A stretch of 64,000 bases of DNA from Escherichia phage vB_EcoM_Kelasse, in sequence record MW749001.1. One strand, written 5' to 3'. The position numbers and the translations under genes were made by a program. Each line of letters starts with the position of its first letter. Within the stretch, counting starts at the first letter, position 1. This document shows positions 3,593 to 33,944 of this stretch, piece after piece. A model generated the notes under the pieces. It was given only the letters and a program-made list of their open reading frames with translations, was not told the DNA's origin and searched no databases.

Positions 3593-4063
3593 TTAATCAT
3601 GTGTCCACACCCCATCGGTATTTGACCAAAGTCGCTGATTATCTGATCCTCGCCACAGCTTTTTAGTCGGAAGATTTTTCTCATACTTCCCATCAATAAT
3701 AACATCAACATATTTAAGCATTTCTAGTTGTTTAATATCTTCAAACTTATATCCTGTCCACAACCAAATGCTTTTATTGGGATAAAGATTTTTAATAGTT
3801 TGAACCACAGAGTGAATCACGTCTCTGTTATCAGGATAAAGAGGGTCACCTCCGGTTATAGTTAATCCTTCTATATAATCATTATTCAAACATTCAATCA
3901 ATTGTTCTAGTGTTTCACCAGTGAATGGAATACCATTTCTAGCATTCCATGTTGATTTATTATAACACCCTTCGCATTTATGCAAACAACCTGTAACGAA
4001 AAGAACGACCCTGCAACCAGGGCCATTAACAAAATCGCAAGGATAAAATCTATCATAATTCAT
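3593..4063 (-). CDS. nrdG: anaerobic ribonucleotide reductase activating protein (radical SAM)
   Basis: 156-aa ORF with CxxxCxxC-type cysteine cluster (GCLHKCEGC); ATGA-coupled immediately downstream of nrdD. Confidence 0.9.
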   Translation of the reverse strand: MNYDRFYPCDFVNGPGCRVVLFVTGCLHKCEGCYNKSTWNARNGIPFTGETLEQLIECLNNDYIEGLTITGGDPLYPDNRDVIHSVVQTIKNLYPNKSIWLWTGYKFEDIKQLEMLKYVDVIIDGKYEKNLPTKKLWRGSDNQRLWSNTDGVWTHD

Positions 4064-5877
4064 TGGTGTTTAACCCTATGCATGATTTCTTTATTTTTGC
4101 CAAGATTAAATCCGCGTTCGTTCGGATTTCCCAAATAACCACATGTTCTTCTTATGGTATTCATCTTTTTAGGATCAGTTTCTCCACAAATAGAACAAAC
4201 AAATCCGTTTTCAGTAGGAGTCATTTCATGGGTACTTCCACATGTAAAACATTTATCTACTGGCATATTAACACCAAAATAATCTAAATGTTGTGCAGCA
4301 TAATCCCATACGGCCTCAAGACCTTTTAAGTTATTTTTCATATCAGGAAGTTCAACATAAGAAATGTGACCACCTGTCGCAATGAAATGATATGGCGCTT
4401 CACGAGAAATCTTTTCAAACGGAGTAATATTTTCTTCTACTGAAACATGGAAACTGTTAGTGTACCAGCCTTTATCAGTGACATCCTTTACACTTCCATA
4501 TTTTTCTGTATCAAGTTTACAGAAGCGATAACAAAGGTTTTCAGCAGGAGTCGAATATAAACTAAAAGCAAATCCAGTTCTTTCAGTCCACTGTTTAAGA
4601 TGAGCATTCATTTTAGTTAAAATTTCTCGTCCAATATCACGACCGACAAGAATATTCAATTCGTGAATACCAATGTATCCTAAAGACACTGAACTTCTAC
4701 CGTTTTTAAATAACTCAATTATGTCGTCATCAGGTTTAAGACGAACCCCGAATGCACCTTCTTGGTAAAGAATAGGAGCAACAGTTGCTTTAACTCCTTT
4801 TAAGGAACTAATTCTACACATCAAAGCTTCAAAACATAAATCCATTCGTTCATTGAACAATTCAACAAATTTCTGTTCATTGAACTGTGTTCCAATATAA
4901 GAATCTAACGCGATGCGAGGAAGATTCAATGTTACAACACCAAGATTATTACGTCCATCAAGAATTTCATTGCCAGTCGAATCTTTCCATACGCTCAAGA
5001 AACTACGGCATCCCATCGGAGAAACAGGAACAGATGAACCAGTGATAGCTTTATTGTTCTTAGCTGAAATAATATCAGGATACATCCTTTTGCTTGCACA
5101 CTCTAGAGCAAGCTGCTTAATATCATAGTTCGGATCGTCTTTATAAAGATTAACACCTTCTTCAACGAACATAACAAGCTTAGGAAAAATAGGAGTTATC
5201 CCATCACGACCGAGACCTTTAATACGATTTTTCAGAATTGCTTTCTGAATCATTCGTTCAGTCCAGTCAGTTCCCGTACCAAATGTAATTGTTACAAAAG
5301 GTGTTTGCCCGTTTGAACTAAAGAGAGTATTTACTTCATATTCATAAGCTTGGAATGCATCGTATACGTCTTTTTCTGTTTTAGATTGAGCATAATTTAA
5401 CGCATCGGCGATTTGCCATTTTTCTGCATCCTCAATATGTTTTGCATAGGTGCGTTTAACATAAGGAGAAAGTACTTTATCTACATTCGCAAAAGTCGTT
5501 CCGCCGTATTGGTGAGAAGCAACCTGTGCAGTAATTTGTGCCATAATTGCAGTAGCAACACCGATTGATTTAGGAGTTTCAATCTGCGCATTACCAAGCT
5601 TAAATCCGTTCTCAAGCATTCCTTTTAAATCTACTAAACAACAATTAGTAAATGGAAGAGCAGGGGAATAATCAATATCGTGGAAATGGATAATTCCGCT
5701 TTCATGTGCTTTCATAATAAAAGACGGGACCATATTTTTGGCAATGTGTTTAGACACAATACCAGCCATAAGGTCCCGTTGAGTTGGAAAAACACGAGAA
5801 TCTTTATTAGCATTCTCGTTTAAAAGGTCTTTATTAGTTTTATGAATCAATCCTTCAATTTCTTTTTCAATTGTCAT
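4060..5877 (-). CDS. nrdD: anaerobic ribonucleoside-triphosphate reductase (class III), intronless
   Basis: 605-aa uninterrupted ORF; C-terminal glycyl-radical motif RRTCGYLG and C-x-x-C zinc ribbon; matches T4 NrdD size. Confidence 0.95.
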   Translation of the reverse strand: MTIEKEIEGLIHKTNKDLLNENANKDSRVFPTQRDLMAGIVSKHIAKNMVPSFIMKAHESGIIHFHDIDYSPALPFTNCCLVDLKGMLENGFKLGNAQIETPKSIGVATAIMAQITAQVASHQYGGTTFANVDKVLSPYVKRTYAKHIEDAEKWQIADALNYAQSKTEKDVYDAFQAYEYEVNTLFSSNGQTPFVTITFGTGTDWTERMIQKAILKNRIKGLGRDGITPIFPKLVMFVEEGVNLYKDDPNYDIKQLALECASKRMYPDIISAKNNKAITGSSVPVSPMGCRSFLSVWKDSTGNEILDGRNNLGVVTLNLPRIALDSYIGTQFNEQKFVELFNERMDLCFEALMCRISSLKGVKATVAPILYQEGAFGVRLKPDDDIIELFKNGRSSVSLGYIGIHELNILVGRDIGREILTKMNAHLKQWTERTGFAFSLYSTPAENLCYRFCKLDTEKYGSVKDVTDKGWYTNSFHVSVEENITPFEKISREAPYHFIATGGHISYVELPDMKNNLKGLEAVWDYAAQHLDYFGVNMPVDKCFTCGSTHEMTPTENGFVCSICGETDPKKMNTIRRTCGYLGNPNERGFNLGKNKEIMHRVKHQ

Positions 5878-23862: not shown

Positions 23863-24040
23863 CTAAACGAATAGGTTCATGAATGCCATATCCCTGAACA
23901 GAAATTTCTGTCGTAGGATAAATTCCACTAATATCACCCATGTTCCACGCTTCATTAAATTGCTGTTCGCCTGAATTACTAAACCATTTGGCGAAAGCAT
24001 TTAGCACATCTTTAGAACCTTCAATAATTATCTTTGCCAT
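23819..24040 (-). CDS. hypothetical protein (73 aa)
   Basis: ORF. Confidence 0.4.
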   Translation of the reverse strand: MAKIIIEGSKDVLNAFAKWFSNSGEQQFNEAWNMGDISGIYPTTEISVQGYGIHEPIRLVEYDLCTGEEVKYD

Positions 24041-24402
24041 TACAAACTCTCAGTAAAGGTACGAGCGATAACGTCGCGCTGCTGTTCCGGAGTCAGAGAG
24101 TTAAAGCGAACTGCATAACCGGATACACGGATGGTCAGCTGCGGATATTTTTCCGGATGCTTAACTGCATCTTCCAGAGTTTCACGACGCAGAACGTTAA
24201 CGTTCAGGTGCTGACCACCTTCAATTTTAACTGTAGGCTGTGGTTCAATTTCAATTTCACGGGCATGCAAACCGTAGAAAATTTCTGGGTCTACAAAAGA
24301 GTCCTCTTTAAAGGTTTTAGAGACAATAATTCGTGCTTGAATACCATCTTCAAAATAAATAGTACCTTTATGTGTGCCTTCAAGAATTTGATATGCTTTC
24401 AT
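24040..24402 (-). CDS. GrcA/YfiD-like autonomous glycyl-radical cofactor
   Basis: C-terminal 60 aa ([59 protein letters not shown]) identical to E. coli GrcA as I recall it, including the RVSGY glycyl-radical motif; this DNA stretch is visibly GC-richer than its surroundings. Confidence 0.85.
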
Positions 24403-25427: not shown

Positions 25428-25901
25428 TTATTTGAATGATTTGACGTACTGAATAGAACCTTTACTATTCACGAAAGCGATTTTACCATTTTTATTATAC
25501 ATGGTAGCAGTACGCTGATAGCCATAAGTTTGTTTACCAGATTGATAACCAACTAATGCGAAATTATCTTCACCCATTTTATTCTGTTTAGCGCGAATAC
25601 GTTCATGACCGTGTGCCATAAGAACCTTAGCATCACCAGTTGAAATTGATCTACGAGTTTTTTCATCTTCAACTGTATTAACAAAGTCGTCAAATGAATC
25701 AAATTTAGCATGGGATTTATTATACAGTTTTCCATCTACTGCATAATTATATCCCTGTACATCCATCTCAACTTCTGTACCATCATCCAATACAGCAGTG
25801 ATTTTTTGACCTTTTTTAAATTTCAAAAGATCAGTAAAAGATTCAGCAATAATTTGAGAATTAATAGCTGCTTCAGTGATAAATTCTTGATATGTTTTCA
25901 T
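25428..25901 (-). CDS. internal-protein candidate with capsid targeting sequence
   Basis: N-terminus MKTYQEFITEA matches the T4 internal-protein CTS (MKTYQEFIAE, gp21 protease site after the Glu); 157 aa. Confidence 0.6.
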   Translation of the reverse strand: MKTYQEFITEAAINSQIIAESFTDLLKFKKGQKITAVLDDGTEVEMDVQGYNYAVDGKLYNKSHAKFDSFDDFVNTVEDEKTRRSISTGDAKVLMAHGHERIRAKQNKMGEDNFALVGYQSGKQTYGYQRTATMYNKNGKIAFVNSKGSIQYVKSFK

Positions 25902-32175: not shown

Positions 32176-32222
32176 CTTATTTCCTGTTTTAATTTGTAGA
32201 TTTAATATACTTATTTATACCA

Positions 32223-32253
32223 AAAAGCCCCAACCTTTCGGTCGGGGCTAAGC
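32223..32253 (-). terminator. intrinsic terminator, repeat copy 2
   Basis: Minus-strand GCCCCGACCGAAAGGUUGGGGC + UUUUU. Confidence 0.6.
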
Positions 32254-32255
32254 CT

Positions 32256-32460
32256 TGCGGCAACCTTGTCGGGGTTCCACCTGCTAAGGCAAGTGTTTGT
32301 ACGAAACGCCGGGATTCGAACCCGGTTATCAAGCAGTTGACGCTACTCAATATTTTTAAAAGGCCATATCTCGACCATATCCGAACGTTCCGTCAAAAAC
32401 GCTACTCGGCTTACGGCAAAGATATTTCCTCGAATCGATAATTCGGTGCGCCGTTTCTGC
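32256..32460 (-). ncRNA. candidate tRNA-like stable RNA(s) (T4 rnaC/rnaD-like)
   Basis: ORF-free 345-bp block next to the tRNA array; contains a canonical T-arm (CCGGGTTCGAATCCCGG on the minus strand) with a 6-bp acceptor-like pairing about 150 nt apart; ends in a terminator. Confidence 0.25.
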
Positions 32461-32560
32461 TGTGATATAAGGGGACATTAACAAAACATAAAGATTTATT
32501 AATGCCAGTCCTTAAACAGGGAACATCAGTCCGACGACTTACCGGTAGCGACCCGGTTTC

Positions 32561-32911
32561 TTAATATTCTTTTAAAGCATCAATCTGTTCACGGCGTTTA
32601 CGCCATAAATCAATTGCTTCATACGCAGATTCAGCATTTCGAATTTGACGGCATTTATATAAAGACTTGTGATTTTGATATTGCGTAGATAACGGAATTT
32701 TATCTAAAAGGTCTTTACGTTCAAAGTATTCGTAACCATCTAAGCCAAATGAACGATTTTTGAGAAATTGCCAATGACCATATTCGTTTTCAACATAAAC
32801 ATAATCCGCGTGTTGATAAAGCAAATTAATTACACGTTCAGAAATAACAGTGTCATTGTGATTAAAATAAAATGTTAAATCATGAACTACTAAATAAACA
32901 TTACCTTTCAT
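32561..32911 (-). CDS. hypothetical protein (116 aa)
   Basis: ORF immediately downstream of tRNA-Arg. Confidence 0.45.
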   Translation of the reverse strand: MKGNVYLVVHDLTFYFNHNDTVISERVINLLYQHADYVYVENEYGHWQFLKNRSFGLDGYEYFERKDLLDKIPLSTQYQNHKSLYKCRQIRNAESAYEAIDLWRKRREQIDALKEY

Positions 32912-32929
32912 ATTTTCCTCACTTATAAT

Positions 32930-33005
32930 TGGTCGAGGCAGTAGGGATCGAACCTACGACCTAGGACTTAGAAGGTCCTTGCTCTTCCTTCTGAGCTATG
33001 CCCCG
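32930..33005 (-). tRNA. tRNA-Arg (anticodon UCU)
   Basis: Hand-folded cloverleaf: 7-bp acceptor stem, T-arm GGTTCGATCC, anticodon loop CUUCUAA, CCA encoded. Confidence 0.8.
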
Positions 33006-33009
33006 TAAT

Positions 33010-33085
33010 TGGGGTGACCGATGGGAGTCGAACCCATGACTACGAGAATCACAATCTCGAGTTCTACCAACTGAACTACGGCCAC
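33010..33085 (-). tRNA. tRNA-His (anticodon GUG)
   Basis: Cloverleaf with anticodon loop UUGUGAU, T-loop TTCGACT, discriminator C as expected for tRNA-His. Confidence 0.7.
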
Positions 33086-33199
33086 ATTAATACCTACTCC
33101 AACAATCAAGATGTCTTCACACGAAATTAAGAGAAGAGTGATCAGTTCAACCCTTATAATCGCGTCAAGTAGATATTAATGTGACAGTTGTCACAAATT

Positions 33200-33274
33200 T
33201 GGCGGACGTGATAGGATTCGAACCTATAACCAATCGCTTAACAGGCGATCGCTCTGCCATTGAGCTACACATCC
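33200..33274 (-). tRNA. tRNA-Asn (anticodon GUU)
   Basis: Perfect anticodon stem ATCGC/GCGAT with loop CUGUUAA; T-arm ATAGGTTCGAATCCTAT. Confidence 0.75.
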
Positions 33275-33278
33275 AAAT

Positions 33279-33365
33279 TGGTGGGGAGTGATGGAGTCGA
33301 ACCACCCGAGTCGCAATGACAATGAATTTACAGTCCACACCGCTACCTCTACGGGATAACTCCCC
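33279..33365 (-). tRNA. tRNA-Tyr (anticodon GUA), long variable arm
   Basis: 87-nt cloverleaf; loop CUGUAAA; variable arm GTCATTGCGAC resembles E. coli tRNA-Tyr; anticodon stem has two G-U pairs. Confidence 0.6.
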
Positions 33366-33371
33366 TTAATT

Positions 33372-33446
33372 TGGTGGCCCTGGGTGGAATTGAACCACCA
33401 TCTGGCGATTATGAGTCGCTTGCTTGAACCTTCCAGCTACAGGGCC
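33372..33446 (-). tRNA. tRNA with anticodon CAU (Ile2-type or Met)
   Basis: Cloverleaf with loop CUCAUAA; 7-bp acceptor GGCCCTG/CAGGGCC. Confidence 0.7.
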
Positions 33447-33447
33447 T

Positions 33448-33523
33448 TGGTGCTGATTGACGGAATCGAACCGCCGACATCCTCATTACAAGTGAGGTGC
33501 TCTACCTACTGAGCTAAATCAGC
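33448..33523 (-). tRNA. tRNA-Thr (anticodon UGU)
   Basis: Cloverleaf with loop CUUGUAA; T-arm GGCGGTTCGATTCCGTC. Confidence 0.8.
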
Positions 33524-33528
33524 AAAAC

Positions 33529-33618
33529 TGGCGGAGGCGATAGGATTTGAACCTATGAGTCGCCGGAGCGACTGCCGGTTTTCAAGACCGGTGCATTAAA
33601 CCACTCTGCCACGCCTCC
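33529..33618 (-). tRNA. tRNA-Ser (anticodon UGA), long variable arm
   Basis: 90-nt type II cloverleaf; anticodon stem CCGGT/ACCGG, loop CUUGAAA. Confidence 0.8.
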
Positions 33619-33620
33619 AG

Positions 33621-33694
33621 TCTCCATACAAGGATTTGAACCTTGGACCTCCTGATCCCAAATCAGGCGCTCTACCAAACTGAGCTACACGGAG
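33621..33694 (-). tRNA. tRNA-Pro (anticodon UGG), CCA not encoded
   Basis: Loop UUUGGGA; only 2 nt separate its 3' end from tRNA-Ser, as in the T4 Pro-Ser dimeric precursor. Confidence 0.8.
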
Positions 33695-33704
33695 TAAATT
33701 AAAT

Positions 33705-33778
<74 letters not shown>

Positions 33779-33783
33779 AAATT

Positions 33784-33870
33784 TGGTGCGAGAAGTGGGA
33801 CTCGAACCCACAAGGAAATCATTCCGCAGCATTTTAAGTGCTGTGCCTTTACCAATTTGACCATTCTCGC
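33784..33870 (-). tRNA. tRNA-Leu (anticodon UAA), long variable arm
   Basis: 87 nt; loop CUUAAAA; GCGAGAAUGGUCAAAUUGGUAAAGG... matches T4 tRNA-Leu as I recall it. Confidence 0.85.
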
Positions 33871-33871
33871 G

Positions 33872-33944
33872 CTGGGAATAAAGGACTCGAACCTTTGCAT
33901 CTAGCAGTCAAAGTGCTATGCCTTACCAACTTGGCTAATTCCCA
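33872..33944 (-). tRNA. tRNA-Gln (anticodon UUG), CCA not encoded
   Basis: Perfect 7-bp acceptor stem TGGGAAT/ATTCCCA; loop CUUUGAC; abuts tRNA-Leu as in the T4 Gln-Leu precursor. Confidence 0.8.

Follow-up and report, generated by a model that had tools for sequence, protein, structure and literature searches.

The stretch of phage DNA analysed here, 64,000 nucleotides long and hereafter called the window, carries a short open reading frame whose product resembles GrcA (YfiD), the autonomous glycyl-radical cofactor of E. coli, most closely in its C-terminal half. This locus raises the questions of whether the gene was taken from the bacterial host, and of which glycyl-radical enzyme its product serves during infection.

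The vs.6 gene and its product

The window is a segment of a T4-like phage genome (Tequatrovirus), and the open reading frame is vs.6, whose product is the orthologue of T4 Y06I. The gene and its predicted radical site are located as follows:

24040..24402, minus strand: vs.6 (T4 Y06I orthologue), 120 aa, stop codon included; a GrcA-like autonomous glycyl-radical cofactor, from the list of open reading frames
24118..24120, minus strand: codon of Gly95, predicted to be the radical glycine of the IRVSGYAV loop, from its sequence position

The 363-nt gene matched 756 phage records by megablast, 744 of them with at least 80% coverage, and the best matches were found in Tequatrovirus (Kha5h, RB51, wV7, and others) at 99.2-99.4% nucleotide identity. 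By tblastn, homologues were detected in 1,588 phage records. The matched records name the gene either vs.6 or "autonomous glycyl radical cofactor GrcA", and GrcA is also the name used in RefSeq. Neither the gene nor its annotation or biochemistry is new, and the sequence-only reading that preceded this analysis erred in treating it as a fresh discovery.

The open reading frame starts with ATG, is preceded by a GAGG Shine-Dalgarno sequence 6 nt upstream, and ends in a stop codon that overlaps the start codon of vs.5 as TAATG. A promoter and terminator scan around vs.6 revealed no enrichment over shuffled sequences (13 sites against 12.1 expected). The neighbourhood follows the order of RB51 (denV, Ip4, vs.8, vs.7, vs.6, vs.5, vs.4, vs.3, regB, vs.1), and in T4, too, vs.6 lies between vs.7 and vs.5. 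As in RB51, an Ip4-like internal-protein gene (25428..25901, minus strand; Pfam DUF7412, 1.3e-95) is located between vs.8 and denV, unlike the T4 reference, in which denV directly follows vs.8.

Vs.6 is equal in length to its T4 counterpart (Vs.6/Y06I, NP_049730.1) and identical to it at 119 of the 120 residues, the exception being position 73 (R in the window, H in T4); at the nucleotide level, five differences separate the two genes. The only domain recognised in Vs.6 is Pfam Gly_radical (residues 61-101, E = 2.8e-18), giving a stand-alone protein of about 14 kDa that consists of an N-terminal region and a PFL-type (pyruvate formate-lyase) glycyl-radical domain, with no catalytic barrel. It aligns with bacterial GrcAs over its full length. 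The profile phrog_1209 matches residues 1-120 (E = 1.2e-62), which together with the position in the vs cluster places the protein in the Vs.6 family (PHROG 1209). In PHROGs this family is labelled "unknown function", despite biochemistry published in 2001.

The NCBIfam model for the GrcA equivalog (TIGR04365) scored Vs.6 at 153.3 bits (E = 3.7e-45), aligning residues 20-120 with model positions 25-126, compared with 234 for E. coli GrcA. Vs.6 falls short of the curated cut-off of 170 because its N-terminal half is divergent, so that by this measure it is classed as a divergent relative of GrcA rather than a strict equivalog. The RefSeq name and the GrcA activity of the T4 orthologue stand despite this score.

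Comparison with E. coli GrcA by BLASTP gave 73 identities in 100 positions overall (E = 9e-52), and residues 61-120 of Vs.6 are identical to GrcA residues 68-127 at all 60 positions. The sequence-only reading had named just such an identity of the last 60 residues, motif RVSGYAVRF included, and was accurate; the radical glycine is likewise present, G95 aligning with GrcA G102 and PFL G734. The surrounding loop is the PFL-type RVSGYAV, which is the one recognised by the PFL activase. The E. coli YfiD structure (PDB 6OWR) was also recovered (E = 8.6e-42), homology to GrcA extending over residues 20-120, and the C-terminal half aligns with residues 697-759 of PFL (E = 5e-26). In an AlphaFold model of Vs.6, built from a 40-sequence alignment, this half superposes on PFL with an rmsd of 0.8 A (43 columns, 79% identity). 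The C-terminal domain of PflB (PDB 1CM5/2PFL, residues 697-759) thus supplies the fold and loop of the part that Vs.6 would replace; PflB differs from the 14-kDa, stand-alone Vs.6 in possessing the catalytic barrel.

In the same model, residues 1-50 of the N-terminal half (24225..24402, minus strand) are predicted with confidence (pLDDT about 90) to form a four-stranded beta unit. A fold search with the model returned only KOW/SH3-like matches for this half, all insignificant (E > 0.1). The N-terminus of E. coli YfiD has been described as disordered and functionally enigmatic. The phage N-terminal half is seven residues shorter than that of E. coli GrcA, with which it shares 17 of 59 residues, and Vs.6 differs further in being expressed from the phage genome.

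Mosaic structure and origin of the 3' tract

At the nucleotide level, the gene is divided into three parts, as indicated by alignment with E. coli grcA:

24225..24402, minus strand: phage-type 5' half, residues 1-59, GC 0.34, with 17/59 residues identical to the GrcA N-terminal region
24050..24224, minus strand: host-derived tract of probable gene conversion, residues 60-118, which make up almost the whole glycyl-radical domain and contain G95; 175 nt identical to E. coli grcA without exception
24040..24049, minus strand: final 10 nt of vs.6 (around GAG AGT TTG TAA), with synonymous codons of phage type; the 3' breakpoint lies inside the gene

By nucleotide BLAST, nt 179-363 of the gene matched grcA at 98.4% identity in every one of the 5,426 complete E. 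coli genomes. Only three differences occur in this region, all of them within the last 10 nt (GAG AGT TTG in the phage, GAA AGC CTG in E. coli), and 57 of the 60 codons capable of synonymous change are identical to those of E. coli grcA. Upstream of the tract (175/175 nt), identity to grcA falls abruptly: only a few bases away it is down to roughly 45-50%. When 4 mismatches were placed at random in 186 nt, a run of 175 nt arose in 0 of 20,000 simulations. The T4 gene carries the E. coli-like tract as well (98.4%, with two changes), and the tract in the window is an unmutated copy.

The tract also differs in base composition, as the sequence-only reading had noticed: its GC content is 0.497, whereas the 5' part of vs.6 has 0.343 and the window as a whole 0.356. 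Only 0.65% of the 175-nt intervals in the window are as GC-rich, and all of the others are located at 32216-33736. Two of these equally GC-rich stretches overlap a tRNA cluster (32930..33944, minus strand; 11 genes, for Arg, His, Asn, Tyr, Met, Thr, Ser, Pro, Gly, Leu, and Gln), and the stretch at 32216-32421 is situated just upstream of the first tRNA. No match to the E. coli chromosome was obtained by megablast for the other 63.6 kb of the window, flanking genes included; the sole E. coli matches beyond vs.6 were between the tRNA genes and the tRNA arrays of plasmids of about 110 kb, at about 82%.

Among 82 bacterial grcA genes, that of E. coli is the closest to the tract. The final 186 nt of vs.6, comprising the tract and the divergent terminal codons, matched E. 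coli at 97.8% identity, another Escherichia species at 96.2%, Citrobacter at 91%, Klebsiella at 85%, and Salmonella at 83%. In a neighbour-joining analysis of the tract, E. coli, the second Escherichia species and the phages of Tequatrovirus and Mosigvirus grouped together with 98.5% bootstrap support, while monophyly of the phages received 0%.

The 5' half has a different history. It is also present in T4-like genera that are devoid of the E. coli tract (Karamvirus CC31, Slopekvirus, and Jiaodavirus), and its nucleotide identity to the window is 91% in Mosigvirus and 74-76% in Jiaodavirus and Karamvirus, with flanks at 48-72%. Eight residues (Q5, R24, K29, D34, R48, E49, P56, and V58) are conserved between the phage and bacterial proteins in the alignment. 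By these comparisons, the 5' half is an old, divergent but genuine phage-lineage version of the GrcA N-terminal region. Between the window and Mosigvirus NicPhage, identity is 97% in the tract, 91% in the 5' half, and 71-72% in the flanks. Since the tract is so much more similar than its flanks, it is much younger than the split between Tequatrovirus and Mosigvirus, and perhaps the whole gene is too.

Taken together, the alignments indicate that vs.6 is a mosaic of an AT-rich phage 5' half and a 3' patch received from the host, most readily by gene conversion. Both breakpoints fall inside the gene, which points to conversion of a pre-existing phage sequence and not to capture of a whole gene. 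In such an event, homologous recombination would have put 175 nt of E. coli grcA in place of the radical-domain DNA of an old phage-lineage grcA homologue. The acquisition from the host proposed by the sequence-only reading accordingly held for the internal patch of 175 nt, with its 98.5% bootstrap support, and failed for the rest of the gene, which belongs to that old phage homologue.

Two other origins of the host-like sequence were weighed against gene conversion. The homology of Vs.6 to GrcA over residues 20-120 is what would be expected if the whole gene had recently been captured from E. coli and its 5' part had then diverged rapidly; however, such a history sits poorly with the step in identity within a few bases at the upstream breakpoint, with the occurrence of the 5' half in distant T4-like genera lacking the tract, and with the return to phage-type sequence in the last 10 nt. 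The nucleotide identity might instead have arisen convergently, under selection on the protein or the mRNA. Against this stand other phages, whose C-terminal half is identical or nearly identical in protein and only about 80% identical in DNA. In Slopekvirus 05F, for example, this half is the Klebsiella/Salmonella-type GrcA C-terminal half of 11 sampled species and is one residue away from the protein of the K. variicola cluster, with DNA only 80-84% identical; because the same protein is encoded there by such different DNA, protein-level selection cannot explain the nucleotide identity of the tract. Recent whole-gene capture or convergence is thus very improbable. A host-like tract produced by a chimeric assembly or host-DNA contamination of one sequence is hardly credible at all, as the tract was found, at 95-99% identity to E. 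coli grcA, in 629 independent phage records, T4 among them, and always confined to grcA nt ~200-384, never upstream of ~199. No description of the nucleotide-level mosaic, or of the parallel event in Klebsiella phages reported below, was found in the literature searched; key older papers lay outside that search and priority is not claimed.

Homologues and host-like patches in other phages

The mosaic arrangement is not restricted to phages of E. coli. In the Jiaodavirus Klebsiella phage Shinkou (L003:301-663), the homologue is likewise divided, with GC 0.35 in the 5' half and 0.55 in the 3' half. Its 3' half is 93% identical to the grcA of the K. variicola cluster (L095:301-684), including an exact run of 68 nt, and its identity to the E. 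coli gene is just 85%; the grouping of Shinkou with Klebsiella received 72.5% bootstrap support. The Klebsiella donor gene lay outside the best 80 of the contig scan and was found by a protein search followed by contig look-up. The 3' half of the Jiaodavirus gene appears to have been converted by host DNA independently, at the position corresponding to that in the window.

A third set of patches was encountered in T4-like IMG/VR contigs of about 30-150 kb (L114-L119 and L126), in which the 3' half of the grcA homologue bears stretches identical to Haemophilus parainfluenzae grcA (L086). Some of these contigs may, to judge by their sample ids, be of human-microbiome (oral) origin. One of them (L116:401-790) shares an exact run of 53 nt with H. 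parainfluenzae grcA, to which its background identity is 83%; with mismatches placed at random, P for such a run is about 0.0003, and related contigs differ at positions of this run. Considering the three cases by their nucleotide patterns, at least two independent host-to-phage conversions are supported and the third, from Haemophilus, is suggestive.

Elsewhere, the homologues behave differently. A search of phages with Salmonella grcA retrieved no tract above 90% identity, so that tracking of the host is not universal. The T5-like, Karamvirus, Krischvirus, Aeromonas phage and jumbo-phage homologues contain no long exact runs to any of the sampled bacterial grcA genes, and these copies appear from their sequences to be old. 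The T5-like Demerecviridae (L009:301-669, L010, L011), which infect Escherichia, Salmonella and Klebsiella, encode a GrcA homologue of 122 aa that is 52-54% identical, and in phage HildyBeyeler the homologue is located directly after tRNA genes. IMG/VR loci labelled as viral (L164-L174 and L124) were left out of the phage comparison, since they carry bacterial pflB/grcA: either the terminal 3' part of a pflB from bacteria or a bacterial-type, Yersinia-like grcA, probably representing host DNA or prophage flanks. A full-length grcA was also noticed on a plasmid, unnamed4 of Klebsiella sp. WOUb02 (L036, 275 kb).

Because Klebsiella-like and Haemophilus-like patches occur in other phages, conversion by the host looks recurrent. 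The radical-domain half of phage grcA may then be overwritten repeatedly by the grcA of the current host, in an ongoing conversion that matches the phage protein to the PFL and PFL activase it meets; we put this forward tentatively, at somewhat under even chances. The donor-recipient pairs would be E. coli with Tequatrovirus and Mosigvirus, the Klebsiella pneumoniae complex with Jiaodavirus, and possibly Haemophilus with oral T4-like phages.

Target enzyme and role in infection

The sequence-only reading had also proposed that the phage copy protects or repairs oxygen-damaged glycyl-radical enzymes, and had pointed to the enzyme and activase that the phage itself encodes. Both are indeed present, as Pfam searches confirmed:

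4060..5877, minus strand: nrdD, anaerobic ribonucleotide reductase (Pfam NRDD 2.1e-171, Gly_radical 1.2e-25)
3593..4063, minus strand: nrdG, NrdD activase (Pfam Fer4_12 7.2e-49, Radical_SAM 1.2e-07)

A review (PMC8683613) names T4 Y06I and E. coli YfiD/GrcA as the two PFL spare parts validated by experiment, and credits the repair of oxygen-cleaved PFL by Y06I to Wagner et al. 2001 (pmid 11444864). In these proteins the PFL-activating enzyme (PFL-AE) installs the glycyl radical, and the protein then binds PFL that has been cleaved at G734, by which activity is restored (PMC8683613 and PMC13450708). E. coli PFL-AE activates the heptapeptide RVSGYAV and not the class III ribonucleotide reductase loop RVCGYLG, and removal of the YfiD N-terminus lowers radical installation (PMC13450708). 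Since Vs.6 is 119/120 identical to the protein that was tested, the mechanism can be carried over from T4 Y06I with high confidence, and Vs.6 is predicted with the same confidence to be a PFL-type spare part, R73H being the one change between them. The description of the product as a GrcA-like glycyl-radical spare part was well founded, and the proposed repair function probably applies to PFL, by analogy with the T4 orthologue, and not to NrdD, given the PFL-type loop and the comparison described below.

A course of events consistent with these data would begin in an oxygen-exposed fermenting host, in which the host activase PflA would place the radical on Gly95 of Vs.6 during infection. The radical-bearing protein would dock on host PFL that oxygen has cleaved at Gly734 and take the place of the lost C-terminal radical domain, whereupon the production of acetyl-CoA and formate could go on, which is probably the payoff to the phage. 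T4 shuts off the expression of its host, and the phage therefore probably needs a GrcA copy of its own. The formate may in addition supply reducing power to an anaerobic ribonucleotide reductase of the formate-dependent kind; formate from PFL is described as usable by formate-dependent class III enzymes (PMC13450708).

Besides repair of PFL, two other roles can be imagined for Vs.6. The protein might be a spare part for the phage NrdD, activated by NrdG and replacing an oxygen-cleaved NrdD C-terminus. The presence of nrdD and nrdG in the window agrees with this, as does the position of the homologue in Aeromonas phage PX29, directly between nrdG and nrdC/nrdH, which would fit a metabolic link too; reviews leave room for spare parts of glycyl-radical enzymes besides PFL (PMC8683613). 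However, the glycine loop of the window NrdD is RRTCGYLG (residues 577-584, glycine at 580), whereas that of Vs.6 is IRVSGYAV. Vs.6 possesses neither the NrdD-type loop (RxCGYLG) nor similarity to the NrdD C-terminus, and BLASTP between the two proteins found no significant similarity (E = 2.7). PFL-AE distinguishes the RVSGYAV from the RVCGYLG loop (PMC13450708), the radical domain of Vs.6 is a verbatim copy of a host protein that serves PFL, and vs.6 and nrdD lie 18 kb apart in the window, all of which makes repair of NrdD quite unlikely. Because the radical loop is PFL-type, any tie to NrdD would more plausibly be metabolic, through the supply of formate. Vs.6 could also be conceived as a decoy that titrates host PflA or occupies PFL and so redirects or shuts down host fermentation, in that its divergent N-terminal half could change the interaction with PflA, loss of the YfiD N-terminus being known to reduce radical installation. 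This is no more than conceivable and very unlikely, given that Y06I restores PFL activity in the published biochemistry (PMC8683613) and that the catalytic-domain sequence of Vs.6 stays identical to that of a functional host protein. We therefore consider it very probable that vs.6 encodes a PFL spare part and is a mosaic with a host-derived radical domain.

In contrast to the arrangement in the window, the PX29 homologue of vs.6 (L012:301-678) is embedded in a cluster of genes for anaerobic and redox nucleotide reduction: it overlaps nrdG at the end of that gene, and nrdC and nrdH come after it.

Intragenic recombination between host and phage has been reported for cyanophage psbA. Like such host-derived auxiliary metabolic genes, vs.6 is a phage copy of a damage-prone host part that exchanges patches with the host gene; it differs in belonging to another pathway and in the very short, sharply bounded nature of the patch.

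For a gene already known, what is added here is only the mosaic and the possibly recurrent gene conversion. With both breakpoints visible, vs.6 is an uncommonly clear case in nature of gene conversion from host to phage over a short patch; together with the parallel patches, it would be convenient for estimating the frequency at which virulent phages recombine with host DNA and for testing if such recombination is selected. The sequence argues against a role of Vs.6 in servicing the phage NrdD. The edge of the converted stretch falls where the structured radical domain of GrcA meets its poorly understood N-terminal region, and the phage N-terminal half, divergent yet conserved among phages, could help to explain the role of that region. 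If recurrent conversion is true, a phage auxiliary protein would be kept exactly matched to the PFL and PFL activase of its host.
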